Shown piece after piece: positions 3,502 through 63,628 of a DNA stretch of 64,000 nucleotides; within the stretch, counting starts at the first letter, position 1, and every line of letters begins with the position of its first letter. The stretch is from Phototrophicaceae bacterium (GTDB taxonomy: Bacteria > Chloroflexota > Anaerolineae > Aggregatilineales > Phototrophicaceae): the NCBI GenBank assembly GCA_965223835.1, contig CBDCXQ010000001.1, positions 606,845 through 670,844 of the forward strand. The letters are read 5' to 3'. A model generated the notes under the pieces. The model had not been told where the DNA came from and did not search any database. It saw only the letters and a list, made by a program, of their open reading frames with translations. Made by a program: the position numbers and the translations under genes.

Positions 3502-4332
3502 TTATGTCGTTGTTGGTTGCTGAGTTGGCGAGACCAGATTGCGCACGGCGGCCCACTCAGCAAACCGCAGCATACCTGCTGTGAGCGCGACATACAAGCC
3601 CATTCCGCCAATTGCGGCAGCCACCAGCGCCGGATTCCACTCATGGACGAGCAGGCCGATGCCGATCGAAAGCGCCATGATCGCCACTGAGACCACAATC
3701 CGCATCCCGAACGCGACGGTCAAAACTACCGGATGGCGACCACTCACCGGCGGCAAAATACCCAGCACGACCGAGAGTGAACTATCGGCAACCGTAAAGG
3801 CCGTTATAACGATCAGCCCGACGATCAAGCGCGACGGGTTCGGCAGGTCCGGGTCACTGCCGATGAAATCCAGCCAGGTGACAACACCCAGGCGCAGCAC
3901 CAACACCATCACGTGATCGCCCCACAGTGAGCGTAGCGTCGCCCACCATTTGCCCTGCACGATCTGGCGGGCCGACATGTTGGTTAGCAATAGATTTTCC
4001 CAGGTGTGGCTTTCATATTCGCGGCTGATGCTGCGGGCCGCCAATGCCAGCGTAATCAACGTGACGACGATATAGAGCGCGAAGTTCATGATGAGCAGGC
4101 TGGTGACGCTTAGTTCGCCGATCATGTCCAACAGCGGTTCAGTAAACAGCTGCCCCAGATCAATGCGGAGCAATGCTGCGCCGATCAACACGACCGAGGC
4201 AATAAACGCCGGGACCAGCATCACGACGGCCAGCAAAATCCAGAACCAGCCGGAGCGACTGCTGCTTATCAGATGCCGCTGGTGCTTGAGTTCGGCGTGC
4301 ATCACCGGGTTGTCGATGGCGATCAAGGTCAC
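3502..4332 (-). CDS. ABC-2-type transporter permease-like membrane protein (orphan, no adjacent ATPase)
   Basis: About 6 hydrophobic segments and the ISREYESHTWENLLLTNMSARQIVQGKWWA block typical of ABC-2 permeases. The start is uncertain: GTG 4332 is preceded by GGGAG, and ATG 4301 is an alternative. The track start at 4485 would overlap the divergent TIR gene. Confidence 0.55.
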   Translation of the reverse strand: MTLIAIDNPVMHAELKHQRHLISSSRSGWFWILLAVVMLVPAFIASVVLIGAALLRIDLGQLFTEPLLDMIGELSVTSLLIMNFALYIVVTLITLALAARSISREYESHTWENLLLTNMSARQIVQGKWWATLRSLWGDHVMVLVLRLGVVTWLDFIGSDPDLPNPSRLIVGLIVITAFTVADSSLSVVLGILPPVSGRHPVVLTVAFGMRIVVSVAIMALSIGIGLLVHEWNPALVAAAIGGMGLYVALTAGMLRFAEWAAVRNLVSPTQQPTTT

Positions 4333-4434: not shown

Positions 4435-4463
4435 TCGCCAGCCGAGTCGTTGCTGGTTATAAT
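4435..4463 (+). promoter_or_regulatory. Candidate sigma70-type promoter for the TIR-WD40 gene
   Basis: TCGCCA (4435-4440), 17-nt spacer, perfect TATAAT (4458-4463), about 35 nt upstream of ATG 4499. GAGGA lies 7 nt before the ATG. Confidence 0.35.
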
Positions 4464-4498
4464 TGCAACCGCCGTTCGACACCACTGAGGATCACCAC

Positions 4499-7471
4499 AT
4501 GACTGATGTGTTCATCTCCTATTCTCGTCAAGACGATGAATTTGCCAAACGCTTGACCAACGCCCTGAAGAAACAGGAACGCGATGTCTGGATTGACTGG
4601 GAGGACATCCCCCGCGCGGCAGACTGGCTCAACGAGATTTATGCCGGGGTCGAAAGCGCTGATACATTCTTATTCATCGTGACACAGCACTCGTTGACTA
4701 GCGAGATCTGCAATTACGAGGTCGCCCACGCCCGCAAACACAACAAACGCATCGTACCGCTCATTCGTCAGCGGATTGAAGGCGACCTTGAAGCGCTGGT
4801 TAAAGGCCAATGGATGGACACGACCTGGGAGCAAACGGCCCGCGAAAACTGGCAGCAGATCGGACACCTTAACTGGATTTTCTTCGAGGATGACGAGAAG
4901 TTTGATGTCGAATTTGCGGCGCTGACCGAAACGTTGCAAACCGACATCGAACATGTCAACTTGCATACCCGATTGCTGGTGCGGGCGCGTGAATGGGAAA
5001 GCCGAGATAAGAACGCCGGTTTTCTGCTTACTGGAGACGAGATAAGCAGCGCGGAAGATTGGCTGCAACTGGCTGAAGCTGGTAGCAAAACTCCTGAGCC
5101 GACTCAACTTCATTGTGATTACATCCAGCAGAGCCGAGCACGCGAACAGGCCGAAAAACGGCTCCTGCGCAACCTCCGTCGGACGACGATCATTGCCGTA
5201 GTGATAGGTGCCATTGCAATTATTGCGACGATTGCATCGTTTTTCCTGTTTCAGCTGTCGGAAGTTCAGCGGGCCGAGGCGGAACGGGCCCAGGCACTGG
5301 CGGAAGATCGTGGTAATCAGGCTTCCAGCGTAGCGCTGGCCGCCAATGCACGCAATCTTATCAATGACGCTGAAACCGGGCTGGGCCTGACACTGGCAAT
5401 TGCCGCTTATGAAACCTATGATCCGCCGCTCGCCGATGTGCAGCAAACTCTGGCACGCGCTATTTATGGTCCCAATGCTCTTTATCGTCTCAGCGAACAC
5501 ACAAAATCCGTGTTGGATGTCGCTTTCAACCCGGATGGTCGCACCGGCTACTCAGTGGCATCCGATGGCGCACTCATCTTCTGGGATCTAAATTCCGGGA
5601 CGATGCTCAACGAAGTCACCTTTGCCGACAATCTGGTCGCCAATAATGTAGCTGTCAGCCCGGACGGCACGCAACTGGTTGTTTCGCTATTTGACAATTC
5701 GTTGCGCCTGTTGGATGCGACGGAAGGTAGCGAGGTTGCCACCTTGACCGGGCATGATGACCTGGTTATGCAGGTGGTCTTCAGTCCTGATGGCAGCCGG
5801 TTGCTCTCCGGCGGGCTGGACCGTACCCTACGCCTGTGGGATGTGGCGACGGGTGAAGAACTGCAACGCATCGACAGCCCTGGCGCGATACTGAATCTGG
5901 CCTTTTCGCCGGATGGTCGGCTAGCGGTAACTGGTTCGGGTGACAGTATCCTCACTGGCTCTGAGTTTCAACGGGAAATTGACCGCACTGTACGGGTGTG
6001 GAACTTGCGGACCGGGTCGGAAATGCAAAAATTCACGCCCAACTCCGGGTTTGTGCGAGCTGTCGCCTTCAGCCCGGATGGCAGCAACGTAGTGGCGGGA
6101 ACCTGGAACTCAGGTGACAATGGGCGGTTGCACCTATGGGACATTACGTCGGGAGACAGGCAAAACATTTTTTTCGGGCACACGGACATCATTACCAATG
6201 TGGCTTTCAGCCCGGATGGTCAGCGTCTACTTTCAACTTCCTGGGACCGCTCTTTGCGCGTGTGGGACATCGCCACCAGCCTGGAAATCCAGCGTTTTCA
6301 AGGTCATCGGGACCGTGTGCTGTCGATGGCGCTGAGCGCGAATGGGGAATATGTTCTGACAGGCACGGGCAATGCCGGAAATGACGTACCTGACCCTGAC
6401 ATTGATCTGGCGGTTGATCAAGTTGTCTGGTTATGGGATCTGGAAAGCCGCGCGCAGATTCATCTGCTGGAAGGGCATGACGATTGGGTATGGGGTGTCG
6501 ATATCAGTCCCGATAGTATCCTGGCGGCATCGGGTTCCGGCCCCTTAAGGCCCCCGGCGCTCGATTCCAGTGTGCGCATCTGGGATGTCGCCACCGGGGA
6601 GCAAATTCGGCGACTGGGCGGACATACCGATACCGTGCATGCGGTACGCTTCAGCCCGGATGGGGCGCTACTGGCATCGGCCAGTTGGGATGATACGGTG
6701 CGCATCTGGGAGGTGGCAAGCGGCGACAGACTCATCACTTACGATAGGCACACCGACAATGTGCTCGGCGTAACCTTCAGTCACGATGGTGCAACCATTT
6801 TTTCAGCGTCCAGCGACAAGACCATTCACATGTGGGATGTCGCCTCAGGTGACGAGATCAAGCGCTTTGAGGGGCACACGGGCGCGGTTAACAGTGTCGA
6901 TCTCAGCTCGGATGGCATGCAGATCCTGACCGCTTCCGATGACCGCACCCTGCGTCTGTGGGATGTTGAGACTGGCGAACCGATCAGGCAATTCATCGGA
7001 CATTCCGACCGCATCAATGATGCGATTTTTAGCCCCGATGGCACGCGCCTGATATCCACCTCGTGGGATACTTCCGTGCGCGAATGGGATGTCGCTACGG
7101 GCGAGGAAATTCGCCAATATATCGGGCACAATGGTCCGGTGTTTGGTGTGGATTACAGCCCGGATGGTCGAATCGCAATGACGGCTTCGGCAGATCTGAC
7201 TATTCGCCTGTGGAACACAGCAACCGGCCTCGAGATTCGGCGGTTCGAAGGACATACCAACTGGATACTCAGTGTGTTGTTCAGCCCGGATGGTAACTTC
7301 GCTGTGTCCGGCGCGGAAGATAATACCGTTCGCTCATGGCGTGTGGAAAGCACACTGGACGGTCTGGTGGCGTGGGCGCATAATAACCGCTACGTCCCGG
7401 AACTAACCTGCGCTCAACGTGAACTCTATAATGTTGAGCCATTGTGCCAGGAATATACCGTGGCATCCTGA
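4499..7471 (+). CDS. TIR domain / single TM helix / 14x WD40-repeat protein
   Basis: N-terminal MTDVFISYSRQDDEFAKRL...ADTFLFIVTQHSLTSEICNYEVAHARKHNKRIVPL is a TIR_2-like domain with a conserved Glu. The TM segment is RRTTIIAVVIGAIAIIATIASFFLF. I counted 14 repeats of the form (F/V)SPDG...(L/V)R(L/V/I)WD, and the Cys-pair tail ELTCAQRELYNVEPLC follows. Confidence 0.9.
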   Translation: MTDVFISYSRQDDEFAKRLTNALKKQERDVWIDWEDIPRAADWLNEIYAGVESADTFLFIVTQHSLTSEICNYEVAHARKHNKRIVPLIRQRIEGDLEALVKGQWMDTTWEQTARENWQQIGHLNWIFFEDDEKFDVEFAALTETLQTDIEHVNLHTRLLVRAREWESRDKNAGFLLTGDEISSAEDWLQLAEAGSKTPEPTQLHCDYIQQSRAREQAEKRLLRNLRRTTIIAVVIGAIAIIATIASFFLFQLSEVQRAEAERAQALAEDRGNQASSVALAANARNLINDAETGLGLTLAIAAYETYDPPLADVQQTLARAIYGPNALYRLSEHTKSVLDVAFNPDGRTGYSVASDGALIFWDLNSGTMLNEVTFADNLVANNVAVSPDGTQLVVSLFDNSLRLLDATEGSEVATLTGHDDLVMQVVFSPDGSRLLSGGLDRTLRLWDVATGEELQRIDSPGAILNLAFSPDGRLAVTGSGDSILTGSEFQREIDRTVRVWNLRTGSEMQKFTPNSGFVRAVAFSPDGSNVVAGTWNSGDNGRLHLWDITSGDRQNIFFGHTDIITNVAFSPDGQRLLSTSWDRSLRVWDIATSLEIQRFQGHRDRVLSMALSANGEYVLTGTGNAGNDVPDPDIDLAVDQVVWLWDLESRAQIHLLEGHDDWVWGVDISPDSILAASGSGPLRPPALDSSVRIWDVATGEQIRRLGGHTDTVHAVRFSPDGALLASASWDDTVRIWEVASGDRLITYDRHTDNVLGVTFSHDGATIFSASSDKTIHMWDVASGDEIKRFEGHTGAVNSVDLSSDGMQILTASDDRTLRLWDVETGEPIRQFIGHSDRINDAIFSPDGTRLISTSWDTSVREWDVATGEEIRQYIGHNGPVFGVDYSPDGRIAMTASADLTIRLWNTATGLEIRRFEGHTNWILSVLFSPDGNFAVSGAEDNTVRSWRVESTLDGLVAWAHNNRYVPELTCAQRELYNVEPLCQEYTVAS

Positions 7472-45150: not shown

Positions 45151-47019
45151 ATGCAGTTTAACCTGAAGGCTCCCGGACACATAGTATTAATAGGGTTGCT
45201 GGCCCAACTTTGGCTGTTCGTCCTTGTCTGGCAGCATACCAGCGAAAATGGCGTTATTTTAGGTCGATTTTCCAGAGGTTATGGTATTTTTGTCGGCCTG
45301 TTTATTGTCACCCTTTGTCTGTGGTGTGGAGCATTGATCTGGCAGCGACGATTTTCAGCGTTGCTTTATGCTGTGCCCCGGCAGTTGTTATTCCCCCTGA
45401 TCGTTTTCAGTGGGGGTGGGCTAGTCTGCTGGTTTACCTCTATCGAGATTACGATCAAGCTTTTTTTTAGCCTGAACTGGTTGTTGTTCGTATTGTTGCT
45501 CCTGCCCATGATTGATGTTGACCAGCCGGTGCGCCTGGAGCGCTGGGTTATTTTGGGCGTCCTATTATTATTGCCCATCATCCTTATTGCTTCGCTGGCA
45601 ACGCAAGGTTACTTCCCTGATGAAGCTGGCTGGGCAGAACGGGCGCGTAATCTCTATTGGCTGGGTGGAGCCTATAAACTCACCCGCCTTCAGGAACCGT
45701 TTTTAATAACGCCAGGTTACGGCTGGTTCCTTGCCCCATATGGCTGGTTATTGCATCATGTTGCGTTCAGCTACCATGTCGGTCGGGTGTGGATTTTTGT
45801 TGCAAATTTGCTGGGTGTTATCGGTGTTGGCTTGCTCACAGGACGCTTATATGGACGGCGGGCTGCGCTTATCAGTGCCGGGTTTGCGATGTTGAGTCTC
45901 TCGGTCTTCCCGATTTATGATTTCAAAGCCAATTTTCAACTAAAGGCAATTGCCCCATATATTATTTTCGCTGCGGTCCAGAGCCGGTTATCGTTGCATC
46001 CAACGCGTTATATATGGCATGGAATCTGTGGGTTGTTGATGTTCCTGGCAATGCAATTGCACGCTGCCGCTATCGCCTATGTGCTGGGGTTGGGCGTCTT
46101 TTATGCCGGTGAATATCTGGTTCAGGTTGTGCAGGCACGCAAACTCGTGGACGTGCGCCCGATCCTGGCCTTTGGCACCGGTGCGTCAATTGGTTTGGTG
46201 ATTTTCATCATTTTTAATGTATTGAGTATAGGCGGATTCGCAGTATATCTTGAACATTTGTCGAGCAATCGTTTTGGTAATAGCACGATTGACTGGTCGC
46301 GCTTCTTACAATGGCCGTCATTGCTGGAAAGGATCATCATTTTTGCGGCGCTAGCTTATATCATTGCTCGGCGAAATCAACAGGATCGACTGTTACTGAT
46401 TCTACTATCATTAATTATTGGGTTCAATTTTGCCACCGATAGCTTCGGCTACACCGCGACTTATCAAATGCTATATTTCGTGCCGGTTGGTGCCTTGCTG
46501 GTAACCGGGATCATCCGTTTGGCACAGCCAAAAGCCTGCGATTTGTTCGTTACGGGCTTCAGCTTAGCCTTATTATTGGTCCTGACTCTGCAACTTTACT
46601 CAGAATTCTTATCAAGTAATGATGTTCGGGCAACATTGCGAAACGGCATGTTACCTGAGCATGTCTATGTAGTGATGGGTGAAGCCTTGGACCCTATTCT
46701 GCGACCCAATGATGTCATTGTCAGCGAACCCGACCTGATCTGGGGCTTGCCATCCTATCGTAATCGCCTCTACAGCTATGGGTTACCTACACAGGAGTAC
46801 GAACAAATGGGCTATGCTAGTGAGGCGGCAGTGTGGTCCGAAATTGCACCAACTATTCTTGTGGATACTGAGCGTATTTTTTATGACGTTAATTTACTTA
46901 ATTATCTGACAAGCACTAACTTCCGTGAGTGCGAACGCTTCCCTGACTTGATGACGATATACCGCCCTGATTGTGACGGGCCAGTATTCAACCTGGATCT
47001 GCGGGGTGTTAATCAATAA
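45151..47019 (+). CDS. GT-C fold membrane glycosyltransferase (GT39/ArnT-like), paralog A
   Basis: More than 10 TM segments and a first-loop motif GYFPDEAGWAERARN. The start is uncertain (45073, 45115 or 45151). Confidence 0.6.
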   Translation: MQFNLKAPGHIVLIGLLAQLWLFVLVWQHTSENGVILGRFSRGYGIFVGLFIVTLCLWCGALIWQRRFSALLYAVPRQLLFPLIVFSGGGLVCWFTSIEITIKLFFSLNWLLFVLLLLPMIDVDQPVRLERWVILGVLLLLPIILIASLATQGYFPDEAGWAERARNLYWLGGAYKLTRLQEPFLITPGYGWFLAPYGWLLHHVAFSYHVGRVWIFVANLLGVIGVGLLTGRLYGRRAALISAGFAMLSLSVFPIYDFKANFQLKAIAPYIIFAAVQSRLSLHPTRYIWHGICGLLMFLAMQLHAAAIAYVLGLGVFYAGEYLVQVVQARKLVDVRPILAFGTGASIGLVIFIIFNVLSIGGFAVYLEHLSSNRFGNSTIDWSRFLQWPSLLERIIIFAALAYIIARRNQQDRLLLILLSLIIGFNFATDSFGYTATYQMLYFVPVGALLVTGIIRLAQPKACDLFVTGFSLALLLVLTLQLYSEFLSSNDVRATLRNGMLPEHVYVVMGEALDPILRPNDVIVSEPDLIWGLPSYRNRLYSYGLPTQEYEQMGYASEAAVWSEIAPTILVDTERIFYDVNLLNYLTSTNFRECERFPDLMTIYRPDCDGPVFNLDLRGVNQ

Positions 47020-48005
47020 TTTACCTGGCGCAAATCGTCGACCAGCAAACCCAGTCGGTATTTGCGCCACAACATGTAAAACAGATGCCAGGTCCGGCCA
47101 TTAAAGTATTGACGTACTTGGCGGATCAAGCCGACCGTAAGGCGTTTTCGCTTGAGTTGGTGAATATAATCTTCAGATACGATTTCCCCATTTTTGTCAG
47201 GTTGATAACCCATCGTTTGCATCAAATCTCCACAAATCTCTTCGACGAGTGCGATGTCTTGAGCAGTCAGATGTTGCCGCCATGCCTCAATCCGGTCTGG
47301 TTGGGGTGGCCGGTTTAAGTTCTGGTGAATCGAGGCGTGATACTTACCATAGTCCTGCCCGGATGTTTCATGGTAGGTGAGCATAGCATCGTCATAGATT
47401 AGACCTAAAAAGTCACACACGACGCGCAGGGCTGTTCTGGGTGTTTTGACCAGATCTTCATACTTAATTTCGAGCACAGAGTTCGGATAGCGTTGCTTCA
47501 AATCGTAACCGGCCTGGACATCGCGCAGCCAGCGTTGAGCACCGAAATAGGTGTTACTATGATGCACATTCGAGCGCGTAAGCGAGGCCGCAACCGCTCT
47601 TGGATCACGAATCAAATGAATGAAGCGGGCGGCGGGGTAGGTGTTTTTGAGCAGATCGCCATAACGAATAAAACGTGGTGTCTTTTGGCCCCAGATGTGT
47701 TTGCCATTTTTGTGGGCATATTGTTCGTGCAAGTAAGTCAGTAAGTTGGCTACGGTGCGCTGTGGCACTAAATCTTGTAAAGTTATGTCAATCTGCCATT
47801 CTTGAAACTCAGATTCCTGTAACACTAGCTTTTGAAAACGTTCAATCGGGCGGTTATTCGCCGCCCGCAAATAATCAATCATGAACAATGACTCGACTGG
47901 GATGGCTACCGCCGGGTGGTTATTCAGCATGGTTCGCAACAGAGTCGTTCCTGAACGCGCACAGCCGACGATAAAAATTGGCTCGACATTCATCAAATCA
48001 GTCAT
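47013..48005 (-). CDS. Sulfotransferase-family protein
   Basis: PAPS 5'-PSB-like loop IFIVGCARSGTTLLRTML and 3'-PB-like motif FIHLIRDPRAVAASL. ATG 48005 is preceded by GAGGAA and overlaps the GT2 stop by 8 nt. Confidence 0.8.
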   Translation of the reverse strand: MTDLMNVEPIFIVGCARSGTTLLRTMLNNHPAVAIPVESLFMIDYLRAANNRPIERFQKLVLQESEFQEWQIDITLQDLVPQRTVANLLTYLHEQYAHKNGKHIWGQKTPRFIRYGDLLKNTYPAARFIHLIRDPRAVAASLTRSNVHHSNTYFGAQRWLRDVQAGYDLKQRYPNSVLEIKYEDLVKTPRTALRVVCDFLGLIYDDAMLTYHETSGQDYGKYHASIHQNLNRPPQPDRIEAWRQHLTAQDIALVEEICGDLMQTMGYQPDKNGEIVSEDYIHQLKRKRLTVGLIRQVRQYFNGRTWHLFYMLWRKYRLGLLVDDLRQVNY

Positions 48006-48987
48006 TGGTTTCCTCGGCCAGGTTTGGAGTTGCAACATGTAGCTTACGGACTGTGCTCAATGGATCGGTTTGTTCCTGTTTAGATTGGACGATAAGTTCT
48101 CCAATCAGGCCGGTGGTTAGTAATTGCAGGCCCACAAGCATTAGCAAGATGCCCAACAACAGCGCCGGACGATCACCGAGCGGGCGAATTCCCCGGAACC
48201 ACTCCAACGCGAGCATTGTATTGATCACAAAACCAATAAACATAAACAAGCCGCCGATGGATCCGAACAGGTGCAGCGGACGGCGACCATAGCGGCTGAG
48301 GAATAGTACGGTAATCAGATCGAGGCCACCACGTAATAGTCGGCCTGTACCGTACTTCGATTTTCCGAATTGACGCGGATGATGGATAACCGGTAGTTCG
48401 GTTACGCGGAAACCATCTAAATAAGCGATTACTGGGACATAGCGGTGCATATCACCATAAATGCGCAGACTCCGGGCACAATCCCCAGAAAATACTTTGA
48501 GGCCGCTGTTCATATCATGGAGGTAAAGCCCGCTCAACCAACTGGTGATCGTATTGGCGATTTTCGATGGCAGGCGTTTTGAAAAAGGATCCTGACGATC
48601 TTGTTTCCAACCGGTAACAATATCATAACCTTCAGCGAGTTTATCCAAGAGCCGGGGAATCTCATTGGGTTCGTCCTGTAAATCAGAATCCATTGTGGCA
48701 ATATTTTGGCCCTGTGCCAGCGCAAAACCGGTCATTAGAGCGACGCTTTTGCCATAGTTGCGGCGCTGCACAGCCAATTTTACTCGGTCATCCTGATTAA
48801 CCAACGCGCGCAATATTTCAGTTGACCCATCGTTGCTCCCGTCATCAACGTAAATAATTTCCCACGAAGTTTGCAAATCAGTCAACATAGTTAACACGTT
48901 TTCATGCAAGAGTGTCAAACTTTCCTGCTCATTATAGACCGGCATGACGATAGAAATATCAACTGACAGGTCTACTTCTGGCTTCAT
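47998..48987 (-). CDS. GT2 polyprenol-phosphate glycosyltransferase (GtrB/ArnC/DPM1-like, C-terminal TM helices)
   Basis: ISIVMPVYNE, IIYVDDGSNDGS and MDSDLQDEP (DxD), plus two C-terminal TM helices. ATGA overlap with the upstream gene. Confidence 0.85.
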   Translation of the reverse strand: MKPEVDLSVDISIVMPVYNEQESLTLLHENVLTMLTDLQTSWEIIYVDDGSNDGSTEILRALVNQDDRVKLAVQRRNYGKSVALMTGFALAQGQNIATMDSDLQDEPNEIPRLLDKLAEGYDIVTGWKQDRQDPFSKRLPSKIANTITSWLSGLYLHDMNSGLKVFSGDCARSLRIYGDMHRYVPVIAYLDGFRVTELPVIHHPRQFGKSKYGTGRLLRGGLDLITVLFLSRYGRRPLHLFGSIGGLFMFIGFVINTMLALEWFRGIRPLGDRPALLLGILLMLVGLQLLTTGLIGELIVQSKQEQTDPLSTVRKLHVATPNLAEETND

Positions 48988-49934
48988 GAAACAGATCCTT
49001 TTCTGTTTTCAAGCAGCGATAAGCCGAATGTGAAAGAAATGTGGATTCCCTCTGCTAGCATCCACCACAGCCGGGACAGTACACTAATCAAGATCGCTAC
49101 ACTTTCGCCCGCCAGCGGTGTAAAGAACGCTAAAATGACGAGTTCGCGGATGCCTAATCCGCCAGGGGCGATAATGACGAGAAAGCCAGTGACCCACGCC
49201 AATGAATAAATAAAAAAGGCCTGAGTCAGCCTGATTTGCTCAGCGGTGATAAAGGTCAAAGCGACGAAATAAAAGCCTAGATTGATAAACACCCAACCAA
49301 TCAGCGCCAGTCCAGTAAGGCCTATGGTTGCCCAGTAGCGTCGCGCCCCTAGTTGATTAATGATTGTCAGCATTTGTGTCGCCAATGGTAGTCGCACCTG
49401 GATGAGAAGTTGCCAGAACCAACGAGCCTGAGTCAGCCAGGTCAGCAGCAGCAGCGCAATCGCCAACCCCAATAAGCGGCGGTGGTTATCATCACTCATA
49501 GCAACATCAGAACTCAACACCAGAAAGATACCGGTTAGCAAAATAATGAGTGTTTCCCATATGATGACCGCTGCACTTAACAATGCTGGCATGCCGTTAA
49601 GCGTATACATGCTGCCGCGTGTGGCAAATTGCCAGACCCCCCCAGGGATGTATTTAGAGAGTTGGGATACAAACCAGAATCGATACGATTGGATAACGGT
49701 GATGGGGTAGCGTAGGGTGTCATGGGCAACTTTGCCAGACATTGACCGAAAAAACAGTCCGACAAGCAAAAAGCAACAGGCGATCAAAAAGTTGGGCCAC
49801 TGGGCCGAACGATAGATAGTTTGCCAGTTATTCTGTTGCAAGAGCCGCTGAAATGTTGTGATAAAGAACAGAGCAGCAATGAGCCATCCCAGCCATTTTA
49901 GTCTGCGTTTCCAGTTTTTTCGCATACCAACCAT
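48984..49934 (-). CDS. Flippase-like / LPG-synthase-TM (UPF0104) family membrane protein
   Basis: About 8 TM segments, a basic N-terminus MRKNWKRRLKW, and IAPGGLGIRE near the C-terminus, typical of this family. Confidence 0.55.
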   Translation of the reverse strand: MVGMRKNWKRRLKWLGWLIAALFFITTFQRLLQQNNWQTIYRSAQWPNFLIACCFLLVGLFFRSMSGKVAHDTLRYPITVIQSYRFWFVSQLSKYIPGGVWQFATRGSMYTLNGMPALLSAAVIIWETLIILLTGIFLVLSSDVAMSDDNHRRLLGLAIALLLLTWLTQARWFWQLLIQVRLPLATQMLTIINQLGARRYWATIGLTGLALIGWVFINLGFYFVALTFITAEQIRLTQAFFIYSLAWVTGFLVIIAPGGLGIRELVILAFFTPLAGESVAILISVLSRLWWMLAEGIHISFTFGLSLLENRKGSVS

Positions 49935-50096
49935 GCTAACTCCTTCATGCCGGGAACCTTACCATAATTAGATCAGAATTCAATTGCCTACGGGTTCTTA
50001 TTGCAAACTGGAAGGCAGGATTATCATTTGTAAGGGCATCCTGTATAGTTGGCACCAGTCAGGTTTGTAAATCTTTTCTGATTCTTTGAGGCGTAA

Positions 50097-52004
50097 ATGC
50101 ATCAATATCGAAGACTGCTTCATTGGTGGTTAATTATTCCGTTAATGCTTTTCGTAGCTACAGTTGGAGTAATGAACTTAGACAGTGATCACATCTGGAT
50201 TGATGAGCTATCTTCAATTGGCAATATCGGCTGGCTGGCCGGGGACCAATACAATCCGATAGAGGTTATCCAATCGGTTGCTGCCAAAAGCCCGGCGCAT
50301 CTTCCTGGTTATTTTATCTTATTAAGTATATGGTCTACTTTTACCGGGTGGTCACCGTTTACACTGCGGGCGTTCTCGCTGTTGCTGGGTTTGCTTGCTA
50401 TAGCCGTCACCTATCAATGTGGCCGTGTGTGGCTGCCGAAACGCACTGGCTTGTATCCAGCCCTTGTGATCGGGTGGAGCGCATATTTCATTTACTATAC
50501 GCATGAATTGCGTATGTATACGCAGTTAGCATTCTTTGTAGCCCTGACGTTATGGGTATATGGTCGAGTTGTCTGGCAAAAACAGCATTCAACGCTGAAC
50601 TGGCTCCTGCTGTTTTCCAGTACACTCGGATTGATCTACACCCATGTTTTTGGGCTGCTGTTGGTGGCGAGTATCGGTATCTATCATTTGATTGTTGAAG
50701 CTAAGAATCGGCATTGGCTTTATGTAGCGGTTGTGATGGGCAGTGCCGGGATGCTCTTTTTACCCTGGTTGACCGTATTATTGTATGGGGCTGAGCGCAA
50801 TGCTGGTTGGATTCCGCGCAATTCTACGCTAAGTCCGATTGGTATTTTACAGACCCAACTTCGGCTGTTCAGCAATGATCAGACTGGCTTCATGCTGATT
50901 ATGGTCGCTCTGGCAATTGTCGGTTTATTTATTTTCCAGCGGTCAGCCTACCGACTGTGGCTGATTTTTATCATAACATTTGTAATCGTGGTCATTTTCA
51001 ATGTCATTATGCCATCGCTGCCCCCAGGACGGGTGCGTTATCTGATGATTTTCTGGCCGTTATTAGCTCTGTTGGTTGGTCTCGGCCTAGAAACTATCCA
51101 GCAGCTTGGCTCGGTTCGGTGGGCATTAGCTGTATTGACCTTATGGTTAGCATTTGGCGTTGCAACCTTTAGCGATCCGGAAGCTCAACCCCAGAAATCT
51201 AGTGTTCGATCCAGCCGGTTCCCACCATTTAATCGCATCATTAGCGCCATGAAGCCCATAGCATTCTCCAATGATTTGCTCATCAGCTTTTCTGATACAA
51301 ATGCTTATGAGCCTGGGAAATTTAATAGCATAGGCGAGTTTTATCTGGGACCGCTCGCGGGTGATCTCAATTTGGTGCGACTGGATAAAGTTTTGGCGGA
51401 TGATGATGAGCAGCAGCTTTTACTCGATAAGATCGGTTCTCGGGTGACTGTGTGGCTTGTTTCAGAACCGGACCTGGCGCCTGATGTTGTCGACCTTTAC
51501 CGGGAAACCATGACCCAGGATTTTACTTTGTGTGATGTACCAATAGACGATAGTGAACTGCGCATCGAACGTTATGATATTGATTGGTTCGAGTGTGCGA
51601 GTCGGGTGCTACCATCTGAGACTTTAGCTAAATTTGGAGCGGACATCACCCTGCACGACATCAAATTGTTTTCTAGAGTGGATAACCGATTAGAGATTGC
51701 CAGCGCCTGGTCAGTTGGGGATTCAATTCCACCGGAGACCTTTTCGGTTTCGTTCAAGTTGTGGCAAGATGGACCCGACCATTTGGCCCTGACCGATTTC
51801 GGCTTGCGGTATCCGGGTGAAAGCTGGTACAGCGCTACTATGTTGTCCGATAATTTAGCAAATGGAACTTATCGCCTGACAGTGACCGTCTACAATTGGA
51901 AAACTGGCGAACGGTTAGCCGGTGTTTATGGTGATGTGGTTGCGAGCGAAATCCCTGTTATGGAATTTCGGCTACCGCTTGATGAGGTGTTTCGGGCTGG
52001 TTGA
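50097..52004 (+). CDS. GT-C fold membrane glycosyltransferase, paralog B (low GC)
   Basis: First-loop motif HIWIDELSSIGNIG, then HLPGYFILLSIW and YTHELRMYTQLAF. The C-terminal soluble domain ends in GTYRLTVTVYNWKTGERL. Confidence 0.65.
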   Translation: MHQYRRLLHWWLIIPLMLFVATVGVMNLDSDHIWIDELSSIGNIGWLAGDQYNPIEVIQSVAAKSPAHLPGYFILLSIWSTFTGWSPFTLRAFSLLLGLLAIAVTYQCGRVWLPKRTGLYPALVIGWSAYFIYYTHELRMYTQLAFFVALTLWVYGRVVWQKQHSTLNWLLLFSSTLGLIYTHVFGLLLVASIGIYHLIVEAKNRHWLYVAVVMGSAGMLFLPWLTVLLYGAERNAGWIPRNSTLSPIGILQTQLRLFSNDQTGFMLIMVALAIVGLFIFQRSAYRLWLIFIITFVIVVIFNVIMPSLPPGRVRYLMIFWPLLALLVGLGLETIQQLGSVRWALAVLTLWLAFGVATFSDPEAQPQKSSVRSSRFPPFNRIISAMKPIAFSNDLLISFSDTNAYEPGKFNSIGEFYLGPLAGDLNLVRLDKVLADDDEQQLLLDKIGSRVTVWLVSEPDLAPDVVDLYRETMTQDFTLCDVPIDDSELRIERYDIDWFECASRVLPSETLAKFGADITLHDIKLFSRVDNRLEIASAWSVGDSIPPETFSVSFKLWQDGPDHLALTDFGLRYPGESWYSATMLSDNLANGTYRLTVTVYNWKTGERLAGVYGDVVASEIPVMEFRLPLDEVFRAG

Positions 52005-61066: not shown

Positions 61067-63628
61067 ATGACCACCAATGATGTGTTTATCTCATACCGGC
61101 GCAAGGATGCGGCTTTTGTCAAACAACTGGCGGCGGCATTCACGACTCAAGGGCACGATGTGTGGGTGGATTGGGAAGATATTCCGCCCGGTGTGAGTGA
61201 TTTCACACGTGAGATTGGCCTGGGCATTGAAGGTGCCAATACGTTTATTGCGGTCCTGAGTCCCGATTTTTTGGAATCCGAATATTGCCTGAATGAATTG
61301 CAATATGCGACCGATCTCAACAAGCGCATCATCCCCATTGTCCATCGTCCGGTCGATGATCGGTCTATTCCCGAAGCCGTTCGAACCATAAACTGGGTCT
61401 ATTTTATCCCCCATGCTGGTCAGTCCAACGAGTTTCCAACGGCATTCAAGGCGCTGCAACAGGCCATCAACACTGATTATGATTACCTGCGCGAACATAC
61501 CCGGTTGCTGACCCGTGCCCGCAATTGGGCGACGGCAGACCGTGATGCCAGCTTCCTGATTTCCGGTGCGGAATTATCTGCTGCTGAAAACTGGTTAGTC
61601 GGCGCCGCCCAGCATACACCACCACCGGCTACTATTCATTCGGAATTTATCCTGCAAAGTCGCCAAGCTCAGACGCGGCGGCAACGGCGGTTGCTCAGTG
61701 GGGCTGTAGTATTACTGTTACTGGCGCTGGTGGGGCTGGTGGTGGCGGTGTTAGGTGGTCTGGAAGCCCGGCGACAGCAGATCATTGCCGAACGCCGTGC
61801 CGACGAGTTGTTGAGTCTGGCGGCGGCCAGTGCGGCTGAAGAAGCCGTTGCGGCGGGTGAACGTTTTACCGGTTTACGACTGGCCCACTTTGCTGGCACA
61901 TTTATCGAGCAGCCACCGGCACAGGTGCAACAGACGCTGCAACAGATCGCCTACCAGCCCGGCGCGCGCTACGCATTTTTCGATGATGTCCCGGCAGATC
62001 ACAGCCTGTATGCCGGTTTGCAACCGGGCGACACCGTGCGCAGTTCAGACCAGAGTGGCACCTATCTGGTCGCAGACGATGATGACCTGCTCACCGTGCG
62101 TAATGCCGACGATCAAATTTTGCTGCGCTTACACAAGCTCTATCGACCGGTTGGCTTTCCATTGCGCGAGTATGATCCGGCCATCCACCCAGCAGTGCTT
62201 GAACGTTATGCCGACAGTGCGCCGCCGCTGGCCCTCAGCCCCGATCAAGCATTTGTCGCCGTGGGTGGGGAAAGCGTATTTCGCATCGTCAGCAATGACG
62301 AATCGGCTGGCGAACTTCAGATACTGGACGGGCACACTTTGCCAGTCGATGGCGTCCGTTACAGCGCGGATGGTCGCTATCTGGTTTCACGGGCTTCGGC
62401 GGATACGCTGATTAACGAATCGCGGATCGATAAGGAATTCTTTGTCTGGGACATGAGCACGGGGCAGGCTATTTTTCAGTTGGATAAATTCCAGCGTAGT
62501 CGTGACCTGTTTGCCATTGCTGAGGATGGGGTTCATCTGCTGTTTATCGAGGATTCGCCACCCGGTTACACCCTCTGGGATGTCCGAGATAGCCGTTTGC
62601 TGGTGAATTTCGCCGGGAGCTTTGGCCCGGTGATGGAGGTATCGTTTACCCCCGATGGTGACCATCTCATCGCGGCATCGGTCGCGACGCTACGGATGCG
62701 TCCGCCGCGCGAGTATAAAGTCTATGATCTGGCGGGCAATCTGATTAATCAATTTGGCGGGATTGAGAGCAATCATATCATTGATGCGCCGCTGCTCTTC
62801 AGCCCTGATGGTACCGCCGCGTACATTATCGACAACGATGGGCGAATCATTGAAACGGATGTCCTGACCGGTGCCGAGACCGTCATTGGCAGTTTGCCGA
62901 ATACCAACGTCGAAGGCAAAAGCGCCAATGGTCAGTTTGTCGCGATTCGCGATTATGAAAACGATGGGATGATTATCTGGGATCTGCAAACGGGTGAAGC
63001 ACTAACGAATTTCAGCGCTGCCGATATTGGTTTTACGTCGCTCATTAGCAATGATGGGCGCTTCGTTGCGTCCAGTATCTTCAATGACAACGGCCTGGCA
63101 GAACTGGTCGTGTATGATTTGGCCGTGGGGGCAGCAGCAACCTGGTTTGAAGACTATGCTGGTGAGTCCGGTTTTGTTGGGGCCATCGCCTTTGCCTTCA
63201 GCCCGGATTCCGAGCAACTGCTATATGTGGATAATCAGAGTAATGTGCGTGTAGTGCAAACGGGAACCTGGGAAATACAAACGCTGATGCGTGGGGTGCC
63301 GGGTCGCGTGTCAGATTTGAAGATGAGCACGGACCAACGATTAATCGCCGTTGCTGGTGAAGCCGGTACCGTTGTTGTTTGGGATGCCGACACCGGCAGC
63401 TTATTGCAGCGCCTCGAAGGGGCGGGGGCCGTTTCCAAGCTGAGTATTGCGCCTGATGGAACGACGTTGTTGACGGGTGATGAGCGTGGTCAAATACGTC
63501 TGTGGCGGTTGTCAGGGACCGGCGATGTACTCACTTGGTTGGCGGACAATCGGGCGTTGATGCCCATTACCTGCGACGATTTACTCCAGGCAATTGTGAT
63601 CGTGTCACTGGCAACCTGCCCACTGTGA
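61067..63628 (+). CDS. TIR domain / single TM helix / degenerate WD40-like beta-propeller protein (paralog of 4499-7471)
   Basis: MTTNDVFISYRRKDAAFVKQL...ANTFIAVLSPDFLESEYCLNELQYATDLNKRIIPI. The shared linker is HTRLLTRARNWA..FLISGAELSAAENWL. The TM segment is LLSGAVVLLLLALVGLVVAVLGGL. Repeats end in FVWD, TLWD, IIWD, VVWD and IRLWR, and the tail carries a Cys pair. Confidence 0.85.
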   Translation: MTTNDVFISYRRKDAAFVKQLAAAFTTQGHDVWVDWEDIPPGVSDFTREIGLGIEGANTFIAVLSPDFLESEYCLNELQYATDLNKRIIPIVHRPVDDRSIPEAVRTINWVYFIPHAGQSNEFPTAFKALQQAINTDYDYLREHTRLLTRARNWATADRDASFLISGAELSAAENWLVGAAQHTPPPATIHSEFILQSRQAQTRRQRRLLSGAVVLLLLALVGLVVAVLGGLEARRQQIIAERRADELLSLAAASAAEEAVAAGERFTGLRLAHFAGTFIEQPPAQVQQTLQQIAYQPGARYAFFDDVPADHSLYAGLQPGDTVRSSDQSGTYLVADDDDLLTVRNADDQILLRLHKLYRPVGFPLREYDPAIHPAVLERYADSAPPLALSPDQAFVAVGGESVFRIVSNDESAGELQILDGHTLPVDGVRYSADGRYLVSRASADTLINESRIDKEFFVWDMSTGQAIFQLDKFQRSRDLFAIAEDGVHLLFIEDSPPGYTLWDVRDSRLLVNFAGSFGPVMEVSFTPDGDHLIAASVATLRMRPPREYKVYDLAGNLINQFGGIESNHIIDAPLLFSPDGTAAYIIDNDGRIIETDVLTGAETVIGSLPNTNVEGKSANGQFVAIRDYENDGMIIWDLQTGEALTNFSAADIGFTSLISNDGRFVASSIFNDNGLAELVVYDLAVGAAATWFEDYAGESGFVGAIAFAFSPDSEQLLYVDNQSNVRVVQTGTWEIQTLMRGVPGRVSDLKMSTDQRLIAVAGEAGTVVVWDADTGSLLQRLEGAGAVSKLSIAPDGTTLLTGDERGQIRLWRLSGTGDVLTWLADNRALMPITCDDLLQAIVIVSLATCPL

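Follow-up and report, generated by a model that had tools for sequence, protein, structure and literature searches.

Does the open reading frame studied here, found in a 64-kb window of Phototrophicaceae DNA (the whole stretch of DNA that was analysed), encode a receptor with a TIR enzyme inside the cell and its sensor outside, and what would such a protein do? That the frame is a real gene is strongly supported, and a chance ORF is rejected. From the N-terminus onward, the protein comprises a TIR_2 domain, a helical domain of about 100 residues, a transmembrane (TM) helix, a helical stalk, 14 WD40 blades, and a Cys-pair tail (Table 1). The frame opens at TTG 4463, the likelier start being ATG 4499, since a Shine-Dalgarno-like GAGGA sits 7 nt ahead of it; position 4435 is where a promoter-like match begins and not a start codon. 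The initial annotation gave the gene its own promoter, which could not be upheld: the basis is a single consensus match, promoter-like sites number seven in the 4.6-kb region (2.8 expected from shuffles), and between this gene and the fucosidase gene, which follows after 65 bp in the same orientation, no terminator-like site was found.

Table 1 Features of the TIR-TM-WD40 gene and of a second family member, with positions in the window. aa, amino acid residues.
Feature	Positions	Strand	Basis and details
Sigma-70-like promoter match TCGCCA-17-TATAAT	4435–4463	+	10/12 consensus matches; consensus match only
Shine-Dalgarno-like GAGGA	4487–4491	+	Read directly from sequence; 7 nt before ATG
CDS, TIR-TM-WD40 protein, 990 aa and stop codon (7469–7471)	4499–7471	+	Identical protein P0121 (6.25-Mb contig)
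TIR domain, aa 1–125	4499–4873	+	Pfam, Foldseek, Cat1 alignment, invariance; S7, D33, S68, E74 (codon 4718–4720) at active-site positions
Post-TIR helical domain, aa 126–228, HTRLLVRAxEW...LLxG..L..AE.WL...P.PT	4874–5182	+	AlphaFold2 model; ends in RLLRNLRR
TM helix, aa 229–251	5183–5251	+	Kyte-Doolittle 19-residue window 2.77
Predicted extracytoplasmic helical stalk and cap, aa 252–326	5252–5476	+	Model helices 242–289, 293–306, 312–323
First seven-bladed WD40 propeller, ~aa 327–650, boundary approximate	5477–6448	+	Pfam, blade cores, model
Second seven-bladed WD40 propeller, ~aa 651–950, boundary approximate	6449–7348	+	Pfam, blade cores, model
C-terminal two-helix tail, Cys-pair motif NRYVPELTCAQRELYNVEPLC	7349–7468	+	C971 codon 7409–7411; C983 codon 7445–7447
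Second family member: TIR, helical domain, TM, divergent beta-propeller, 853 aa	61067–63628	+	tblastn, translation, Pfam

The TIR_2-like domain seen at the N-terminus matches Pfam TIR_2 (PF13676) at residues 4–112 with 81.7 bits (E = 7.8e-23), above the curated gathering score of 28, and TIR was the sole domain found in a Pfam search of residues 1–334. The fold is supported by a model of the N-module (pLDDT 93) and by Foldseek matches of probability 1.00 to known TIR domains: RPP1, RPS4, RUN1, SARM1, Cat1, and SPARTA, and also TLR1, TLR6, and TLR15. ThsB-type TIR models of PADLOC match as well (best E = 1.9e-12), in the generic TIR core only. Among solved proteins, Cat1 is the nearest in sequence and aligns without gaps over residues 2–78. 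The NADase site of Cat1 is lined by S7, H8, N9, N10, D33, S68, and E74, and its toxicity in vivo is abolished by E74A, D33A, or S68A (PMC12162218). S7, D33, S68, and E74 are identical to the same-numbered residues of Cat1 and do not vary in any of the 37 full-length orthologs or 34 N-module relatives; the glutamate that had been noted as retained at the catalytic position, in SLTSEICNYEVAHA, is E74. Neither alignment (full-length or N-module) shows any variation at positions 7, 8, 9, 33, 68, and 74, R10 is invariant in alignment A1 and kept in 36/37 sequences of alignment A2, and no counterpart of the trans-acting Cat1 residues K121 and Y122 could be mapped in the TIR-TM-WD40 protein. From these positions the domain is predicted to cleave NAD; conservation of the glutamate is in itself no proof of NADase activity, since a TLR alignment places Glu at the E74 position in non-enzymatic TLR TIR domains as well.

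The fold matches to TLR1, TLR6, and TLR15 would also suit a TIR domain that, like those of animal TLRs, is no enzyme but a scaffold for assembly, recruiting TIR or effector proteins encoded elsewhere. Several further TIR proteins are encoded in the source genome, and linkage of effectors to the receptor gene would not be required. Such a role is nonetheless improbable in our judgement: identity at four of the seven residues of the Cat1 NADase site, with all seven positions invariant or nearly so, is hard to explain by scaffolding, and no adaptor-like partner is conserved nearby.

The helical linker of roughly 100 residues described after the TIR domain is borne out by the AlphaFold2 model, in which helices span residues 132–229 (132–147, 150–168, 180–195, and 203 onward; pLDDT >90). 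A Pfam search returned no matching family for residues 126–228. An hhalign comparison shows the domain to be a homologue of the region preceding the TM helix in kinase-nSTAND1-TM-WD40 proteins (probability 99.5%, E = 4e-23); 4737 protein cluster representatives match it, and it is also found in tandem TIR-helical units. It is all-helical, and its homology in paralogs is to the stretch after nSTAND1 and not to the NTPase. Membership of the STAND/NLR proteins (nSTAND1, NACHT, NB-ARC, Avs) was rejected, no P-loop NTPase being present between the TIR domain and the repeats. Next comes one strongly hydrophobic segment, TTIIAVVIGAIAIIATIASFFLF, its best 19-residue Kyte-Doolittle value as listed in Table 1, with the basic cluster RLLRNLRR immediately on its N-terminal side, as first described; the N-side flank holds six K/R and two D/E, the C-side flank two K/R and three D/E. 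A TM helix at the equivalent position was present in 37/37 aligned full-length orthologs and 67/70 genome loci, sequence identity in the TM region being only 0–47% despite retention of the helix.

All sequence indicators agree on a cytoplasmic TIR domain and extracytoplasmic propellers, a topology that was proposed at the outset and is now supported in silico. The protein begins directly at TIR strand A and so lacks an N-terminal signal peptide. Relatives have on average 4.64 K+R in the N flank versus 2.02 in the C flank (N > C in 211/233), and their ectodomains contain exactly two Cys in 70/109 and an even number in 86%, both counts being taken over related, non-independent sequences; the control for Cys parity, relatives without a TM helix at threshold, is not valid, since it comprises only nine sequences, most of which probably belong to the family too but have a weaker TM helix. 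Pro/Thr-rich tails terminate orthologs; LysM (E = 1.2e-10), SH3_3 (E = 4e-11 and 1.6e-15), and PPC (E = 2.2e-12) domains are found in relatives beyond the WD40 repeats, on the WD40 side of the single TM helix; TPR, FGE-sulfatase, SH3_3, and PD40 are alternative post-TM domains. WD40, TPR, and sulfatase-modifying (FGE-type) domains have been predicted to be periplasmic in single-pass Ser/Thr kinases (PMC11032199). The term "surface-sensing" was too strong for the diderm relatives (Cyanobacteria, Parabeggiatoa), in which the propeller would be periplasmic.

If the hydrophobic segment did not span the membrane, or if the N-terminus lay outside, the WD40 repeats would form a cytoplasmic sensor as in Apaf-1 or Avs. 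In STAND proteins the WD40 sensors classically lie in the cytoplasm, Apaf-1 is among the fold matches, the pre-TM helical domain is also found after nSTAND1 NTPases, and residues 228–244 have pLDDT <50 in the full-length model. Against this stand a hydropathy far over typical TM thresholds and kept while the sequence drifts; the strong positive-inside bias; the LysM, SH3_3, and PPC domains and Pro/Thr-rich tails distal to WD40; the conserved Cys pair in the ectodomain; and the consideration that an extracellular TIR domain would be without NAD+ substrate. A cytoplasmic WD40 sensor therefore appears very improbable to us.

The 14 WD40 blades counted initially are recovered as 14 regular [FLVIY]S.DG cores spaced 41–57 aa apart (Pfam WD40, E = 2.8e-122), and the full-length AlphaFold2 model has a mean pLDDT of 89.5, with most of the propeller region above 90. 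Its best structural match is 2ymu, a 14-repeat WD40 protein of Nostoc punctiforme, other matches including the Aip1-type protein 1nr0, which has two seven-bladed propellers; the match is limited to the propeller region, with no TIR or TM part, and is functionally uninformative, as is the full-length Foldseek search, in which generic WD40 proteins dominate. The Cys pair noted in the C-terminal tail (C971 and C983) accounts for the sole Cys in the 739 residues past the TM helix, and among 37 orthologs Cys is retained at the C971 position in 27 and at the C983 position in 33. The same motif terminates WD40-less short relatives and the kinase-nSTAND1 paralog. The tail is probably disulfide-bonded.

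The gene had been treated as a singular oddity; it belongs instead to a large modular family with another representative in this window, which carries Pfam TIR_2 (E = 2.6e-26), propeller families, and a terminal Cys pair of its own. More than 513 loci were found among species-representative genomes, in filamentous Chloroflexota, Cyanobacteria, and Parabeggiatoa; the family is confined to filamentous lineages and has multiplied in individual genomes. The best match to the protein among the genome contigs searched is 57% identical. Across the family, WD40, TPR, FGE, or SH3 ectodomains follow the TIR-helical-TM head, and some relatives carry three, five, or seven tandem TIR-helical units ahead of the TM helix, the S..C..E motif being kept in each. 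Compared with paralog P0122 of the same genome, the head is 39–47% and the ectodomain 75–81% identical (stalk/cap region, 81%); compared with the kinase-nSTAND1 protein P0160, also of the same genome, the ectodomain is 52% identical and the pre-TM helical domain is homologous. These contrasts in identity indicate that heads and sensors recombine freely, which argues against specific contacts between them.

As the initial annotation held, no partner gene is present in the window, and none is conserved across 70 related loci. The 481 neighbour ORFs of these loci fall into 393 clusters, none of which occurs in more than nine loci, and the largest are generic (ABC transporter, WD40, histidine kinase, TPR). 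A neighbour with PG_binding_1 and Peptidase_C1 domains recurs, but in five related Nostoc loci only. Membership of Thoeris was rejected: no ThsA-type gene (SIR2-SLOG or Macro-TM) is adjacent in the window or conserved across the 70 loci, and with the NCBIfam model ThcB4 the score of 36.6 bits falls short of the cut-off of 220. A defence-island context was likewise rejected, PADLOC returning no systems in the 64 kb and weak matches only to generic methyltransferase and PtuB/Cas9 models, the latter taken to be HNH-type. Nothing supports horizontal acquisition, the GC content (0.55–0.56) being the same as in the flanks. An immune role gains no positive support from the housekeeping neighbours in the window, the native GC content, or the absence of defence-island neighbours, and an ectodomain more conserved than the TIR domain between close relatives is the opposite of what is expected of an arms-race sensor. 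Immunity, kin recognition, and suicide, the roles suggested at the outset, are therefore putative only, as is NADase activity.

We propose, with about an even chance of being right, that the protein is a type-II single-pass receptor in which ligand-driven clustering activates NAD+ cleavage by the TIR domain with no dedicated partner gene. The TIR and helical domains would lie in the cytoplasm, followed by one TM helix, with the stalk, propellers, and tail outside, in the cell-wall zone or periplasm. The propellers would bind an extracytoplasmic ligand, possibly envelope- or peptidoglycan-associated, by which receptor molecules would be clustered or re-oriented, bringing the cytoplasmic TIR domains into head-to-tail contact to form a composite active site. 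Known TIR enzymes require head-to-tail contacts to build such a site. Cleavage of NAD+ may then lead to its depletion, with growth arrest or death of one cell of the filament, or to a signal derived from ADP-ribose. In this family of filamentous bacteria, cytoplasmic heads and ectodomains are swapped around the TM helix. The evidence for transduction of the clustering type consists of exchangeable heads and sensors and of the tandem TIR-helical arrays of three, five, and seven units.

With the same topology, the protein may instead serve signalling (on the state of the envelope, contact between cells, or a developmental cue of the filament) and not immunity or suicide, the TIR domain making a nucleotide second messenger or modestly tuning NAD+ without killing, in the manner of a receptor kinase. 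The neighbourhood, free of mobile elements and defence genes, would fit, as would the conservation of the ectodomain over the head between paralogs, the use of this ectodomain with a Ser/Thr kinase-nSTAND1 head elsewhere in the genome, the receptor kinases reported with the same ectodomain types (PMC11032199), and the peptidoglycan-binding LysM or SH3 domains of some relatives. Across the 70 loci, however, no cADPR- or ADPR-sensing partner (SLOG, Macro, SAVED) is conserved nearby; a family that is filamentous-only and genome-expanded fits the pattern of conflict systems of multicellular bacteria (PMC7159879). Moreover, according to established knowledge, the bacterial TIR enzymes characterised so far act in defence. 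We hold this role to be rather unlikely, though the most serious competitor of the clustering-activated NADase receptor.

Of known systems, Toll-like and IL-1 receptors share only the layout predicted here, TIR inside and sensor outside, signalling being expected to need receptor clustering in both. They are type I with a C-terminal TIR domain and an LRR or Ig ectodomain, whereas the protein described here is predicted to be type II with an N-terminal TIR domain and a WD40 double propeller, keeps NADase-type active-site residues, and has no evident adaptor; the shared layout probably arose independently. In the single-pass Ser/Thr kinases surveyed in Planctomycetota (PMC11032199), as predicted for the present protein, one TM helix links an enzymatic head in the cytoplasm to a WD40, TPR, or FGE sensor outside it, predicted there to be periplasmic, but the TIR head here is predicted to perform NAD+ chemistry and not phosphorylation. 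Defence TIR enzymes (Thoeris ThsB, Cat1, TIR-SAVED, TIR-APAZ/SPARTA, AbTir) have a TIR_2-type domain with the conserved Glu as well and are activated by oligomerisation; no ThsA, SIR2, Macro, CARF, SAVED, or Argonaute partner or domain occurs here, and their sensors are cytoplasmic nucleotide- or nucleic-acid-binding domains, whereas the present sensor is predicted to lie outside the cytoplasm. The TIR-STAND-WD40/TPR conflict systems of Kaur et al. (2020, 2021; nSTAND1, NACHT, AP-ATPase) show the same filamentous Cyanobacteria and Chloroflexota, the same vocabulary of effectors and repeats, and the same genome-level expansion and domain shuffling, but there an NTPase switch, and here a TM helix, separates TIR from WD40; the passages retrieved from those papers contain no membrane-spanning TIR-TM-WD40 arrangement.

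That this mode had not been characterised experimentally agrees with the searchable literature, a body that leaves most subscription journals outside: neither an experimental or explicit comparative description nor biochemical or genetic data on family members were found in it. To our knowledge, the bacterial TIR systems characterised so far all sense cytoplasmic cues, for example phage proteins, cyclic nucleotides, or guide-target duplexes. Tentatively, and with less than even confidence, we suggest that filamentous bacteria hold a large unstudied class of transmembrane receptors of innate-immune type that share a chassis of helical domain, TM helix, and extracytoplasmic repeats or lectin, with exchangeable heads (a single TIR, three to seven tandem TIRs, or a kinase-nSTAND1 NTPase). 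If true, no prokaryotic TIR or STAND protein before them would have been shown to sense events beyond the cytoplasm; extracellular or periplasmic recognition would be converted to NAD+ destruction or signalling by clustering, and the class would match Toll-like receptors in function while having evolved independently. The chassis shared with kinase-nSTAND1 proteins raises the question of how a STAND NTPase switch can be controlled by a sensor across the membrane. Culturable Nostoc and Leptolyngbya strains are among the carriers, so the family is experimentally tractable. The TIR-TM-WD40 wiring would couple envelope events directly to NAD+ chemistry in bacteria, building the logic of Toll-like receptors from different parts, and would bear on the evolution of immune receptor layouts and on the policing of infected or damaged cells in filamentous, multicellular bacteria.

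The gene occupies a single long open reading frame on the + strand, from TTG 4463 to a stop codon at 7469-7471 (ORF list and translation). ATG 4499, 7 nt 3' of a GAGGA, is the most plausible start and gives a product of 990 aa with the N-terminus MTDVFISYSR. A sigma-70-like consensus match (TCGCCA-17-TATAAT, 4435-4463) lies 5' of this ATG; the initial annotation had placed the feature at 4435-7471, of which the right end stands, the left edge being this promoter-like match and not a start codon. The gene has the same GC content as its surroundings. It may or may not be monocistronic: the 65 bp that separate it from the downstream fucosidase gene contain no terminator-like site. For the divergently transcribed upstream ORF (window 3502-4329, - strand), the probable start is not 4485 but a GTG near 4329 that follows a GGGAG motif; the similarity of this ORF to ABC-2 membrane proteins is only weak (E about 1e-3).

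All elements of the architecture first read from the DNA (a TIR domain with its Glu, a helical linker, a hydrophobic segment, 14 WD40 blades and a Cys pair) were recovered by profile searches, in the sequence and in the structural model. The two Pfam families proposed for checking, TIR_2 and WD40, both matched (E=7.8e-23 and E=2.8e-122, respectively); PADLOC ThsB-type TIR models hit the same TIR core. Blade cores ([FLVIY]S.DG) number 14 and are spaced 41-57 residues apart. The TM segment is flanked by 6 basic and 2 acidic residues on its N side and by 2 basic and 3 acidic on its C side, and the only cysteines C-terminal of it are C971 and C983. An AlphaFold2 model was built with 37 orthologs (mean pLDDT 89.5); when aa 1-264 were modelled separately (pLDDT 93), the helix ran unbroken over 203-263 across the membrane span. 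In Foldseek searches the ectodomain matched tandem-propeller WD40 proteins (best match 2ymu; also 1nr0, with two seven-bladed propellers), and the head, i.e., the TIR domain, helical domain and TM helix, matched TIR domains of plant TNLs, SARM1, Cat1, SPARTA and TLRs.

Domains and predicted structural features of the 990-aa protein
Feature	Position (aa)	Basis
TIR domain	1-125	Pfam TIR_2 at aa 4-112, E=7.8e-23, score well over gathering cut-off
Helices	132-229	AlphaFold2
TM segment	229-251	Kyte-Doolittle 19-residue mean 2.77
Low-confidence stretch, the membrane span	228-244	AlphaFold2
Long helix, then small helical cap to 323	242-289	AlphaFold2
56 beta-strands in runs of four, followed by two terminal helices	327-948	AlphaFold2

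An inside TIR domain and an outside propeller had been proposed, and comparison with relatives backs this layout; the counts that follow are drawn from related sequences and are not independent trials. A hydrophobic helix occupies the equivalent position in all 37 aligned full-length orthologs, in almost every other listed relative with a TIR head and at 67 of the 70 genome loci, at a helix sequence identity of just 0-47%; selection has therefore acted on hydrophobicity, not on sequence. Across 233 single-TM relatives, Lys+Arg average 4.64 in the 15 residues before the helix and 2.02 in the 15 after it, with the N flank richer in 211. The protein has no N-terminal signal peptide and opens with TIR strand A. 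Post-TM cysteines number exactly two in 70 of 109 relatives and are even in number in 86%; the pair lies in a conserved terminal motif, LTCxERxxYNVEPxC, past which Pro/Thr-rich tails extend in many orthologs. Distal to the propellers, some TIR-TM-WD40 relatives carry LysM (P0189), SH3_3 (L024, L031) or PPC (L013) domains, all over Pfam cut-offs and, given the single TM helix, on the same side as the WD40 repeats. LysM, SH3_3 and PPC are typical of cell-wall-binding or secreted proteins. In place of WD40, other family members have TPR, FGE-sulfatase, SH3_3 or PD40 after the TM helix; WD40, TPR and FGE-type (SUMF1) domains were predicted to be periplasmic in a survey of single-pass Ser/Thr kinases (PMC11032199). 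Because TM conservation, charge bias, lack of a signal peptide, Cys pair, tails, and distal and alternative domains combine, a predicted N-in/C-out topology is by far the best reading of this comparative evidence.

The closest solved sequence relative is Cat1, a CRISPR-associated NADase; since residues 2-78 align to it without gaps, the two proteins share their residue numbering there. The Cat1 NADase pocket is lined by S7, H8, N9, N10, D33, S68 and E74, and Ala substitution of N10, D33, S68 or E74 abolishes its toxicity in vivo (PMC12162218). S7, D33, S68 and E74 are identical between the two proteins. Positions 7, 8, 9, 33, 68 and 74 are invariant both in the 37 full-length orthologs and in 34 relatives of the N-terminal module; position 10 is invariant in all 34 of the latter and conserved in 36 of the former. 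This pattern fits a TIR domain that would be under selection for catalysis and is not proof of catalysis, since TLR TIR domains keep the same Glu.

The gene is a mosaic. A search with aa 1-334 retrieved 461 proteins, mainly from Chloroflexota and Cyanobacteria, in which the same head is joined to differing ectodomains. The identical protein record (P0121) maps to a contig of 6.25 Mb, where a paralog with 70% identity (P0122) and a Pkinase-AAA_16-nSTAND1 protein of 1606 aa (P0160) are encoded too. Identity to the paralog is 40% in the TIR domain, 47% in the helical domain and 39% in the TM helix, whereas stalk, propellers and tail reach 75-81%; the head is closest (60-67%) to proteins with other ectodomains, e.g., the FGE-bearing P0002. 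This contrast places the junction near the TM helix. P0160 is 52% identical to aa 268-983 and shares the unusual blade insertions as well as the Cys-pair tail. It has a TM helix at about aa 773 and a 14-blade WD40 ectodomain; some 70 comparable proteins with a Pkinase domain, roughly 1500-1700 aa in length, were listed, and most of them also have nSTAND1. If its topology holds, the membrane lies between STAND NTPase and WD40 'sensor', which is unexpected for STAND proteins. Homology also links the helical domain with the segment that precedes the TM helix in kinase-nSTAND1-TM-WD40 proteins (TM residues left out; hhalign probability 99.5%, E=4e-23).

An exhaustive search with the 99-aa helical domain gave 4737 cluster representatives at E<=0.001, of which 1354 remained at E<=1e-10. 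Among the 146 top-ranked proteins matched by this domain, a ranking biased toward multi-copy proteins because domain scores sum, three tandem TIR-helical units occur in 111, five in 15 and seven in 3. In most tandem proteins examined a TM helix follows the last unit and precedes a long C-terminal region; the S..C..E motif is kept in all TIR copies of the two proteins checked (P0245, P0270). Some of the proteins P0245-P0390 have polytopic C-terminal membrane regions, and some a different N-terminal head (MKVFLGGTVN..W), by its appearance a putative deoxyribosyltransferase/DRHyd-type domain. Members of one subfamily, about 550 aa long (P0016-P0027, P0035, P0036, L004, L005), have the TIR-helical-TM head, followed by some 280 aa with no assigned domain and by a second TM helix right at the C-terminus, so that both ends would be cytoplasmic. 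The species-representative genome scan gave at least 513 loci; the best 78 of these are in Anaerolineae-type Chloroflexota, filamentous Cyanobacteria (Nostoc, Leptolyngbya, Aerosakkonema, Alkalinema) and Candidatus Parabeggiatoa, with two loci in several genomes. One member is plasmid-borne (L035; CP166617.1, Leptolyngbya sp. BL-A-14 plasmid unnamed7), with a chromosomal copy (L045) in the same strain. The window itself holds a second, more divergent member (61067-63628, + strand, 853 aa, TIR-helical-TM-beta-propeller) with TIR_2 at E=2.6e-26, the S..C..E motif, a divergent propeller and its own terminal Cys pair. The neighbours of this second member, an operon for a 2-oxoacid dehydrogenase and the gene of a PIG-L deacetylase, are again housekeeping.

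Flanking genes encode an Fe-alcohol dehydrogenase, a carbonic-anhydrase-like protein, the putative ABC-2 membrane protein, alpha-L-fucosidase, 3-methyladenine glycosylase, GH127 arabinofuranosidase, a HAD protein and a nitroreductase, and none matched PADLOC models. The remaining window is housekeeping (Phe-tRNA synthetase, 2-oxoacid dehydrogenase, methyltransferases, glycosyltransferases), with weak, generic PADLOC matches. One ORF within 13466-60992 has weak matches to the models of PtuB and Cas9 (E about 3e-7 to 5e-6), for which a common HNH-type nuclease motif is the likeliest cause; another product of the region is a 23S rRNA-intervening-sequence protein (PF05635). Glycosyltransferase, sulfotransferase and PMT_2-type proteins are encoded in the window as well; its GC content falls to 0.47-0.48 at 46000-52000 (about 0.55 elsewhere). 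Around 70 related loci, 481 neighbouring ORFs formed 393 clusters, the largest of which (ABC transporters, WD40, histidine kinases, TPR proteins) are present in no more than 9 loci and occupy no constant position; no conserved partner gene was found across these loci, and the protein is therefore self-contained. With housekeeping neighbours and no ThsA partner, the earlier statement that no ThsA/SIR2/SLOG-type partner is nearby holds. In five Nostoc loci (L067, L069, L070, L075, L076) the next gene downstream codes for a protein of some 960 aa that combines PG_binding_1 with a papain-like Peptidase_C1 domain; this may reflect synteny of close relatives or a lineage-specific, envelope-linked partner.

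In SARM1, plant TNLs, AbTir, TIR-SAVED, Cat1 and SPARTA the active site is built between two TIR domains, and activation is by induced oligomerisation. The three to seven TIR domains per chain in relatives fit this need for TIR-TIR packing. Because head and sensor would lie on opposite membrane sides and recombine freely, the signal would most simply be carried by ligand-induced clustering or, alternatively, by re-orientation of a rigid helix running from helical domain through membrane to stalk; the activated head would either deplete NAD+ or yield a signal derived from ADPR. A candidate source of the ligand is the peptidoglycan layer, as hinted by relatives with fused LysM and SH3_3 domains. 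Both the distribution over lineages and earlier comparative studies of conflict systems in multicellular bacteria (PMC7159879, PMC8195603) make immunity or altruistic death within the filament plausible. Non-lethal signalling is a serious rival; the housekeeping context and the good conservation of the ectodomain speak for it.

The protein belongs to the TIR_2 family and to the WD40 double-propeller proteins. It is not Thoeris (no ThsA partner; NCBIfam ThcB4 score 36.6, cut-off 220), not a STAND/NLR protein (no NTPase) and not a TLR homologue in architecture (WD40 ectodomain, not LRR; type II orientation); its predicted layout resembles that of TLRs, and its construction that of bacterial receptor kinases. 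Descriptions exist of the components and of the version with a kinase; no description or experimental study of a TIR-TM-repeat receptor was found in the searchable literature, and databases name family proteins just 'TIR domain-containing protein' or 'WD40 repeat protein'. We tentatively raise the possibility, somewhat against the odds, of a whole class of transmembrane TIR and STAND receptors that sense outside the cytoplasm, which, if true, would be of high interest.
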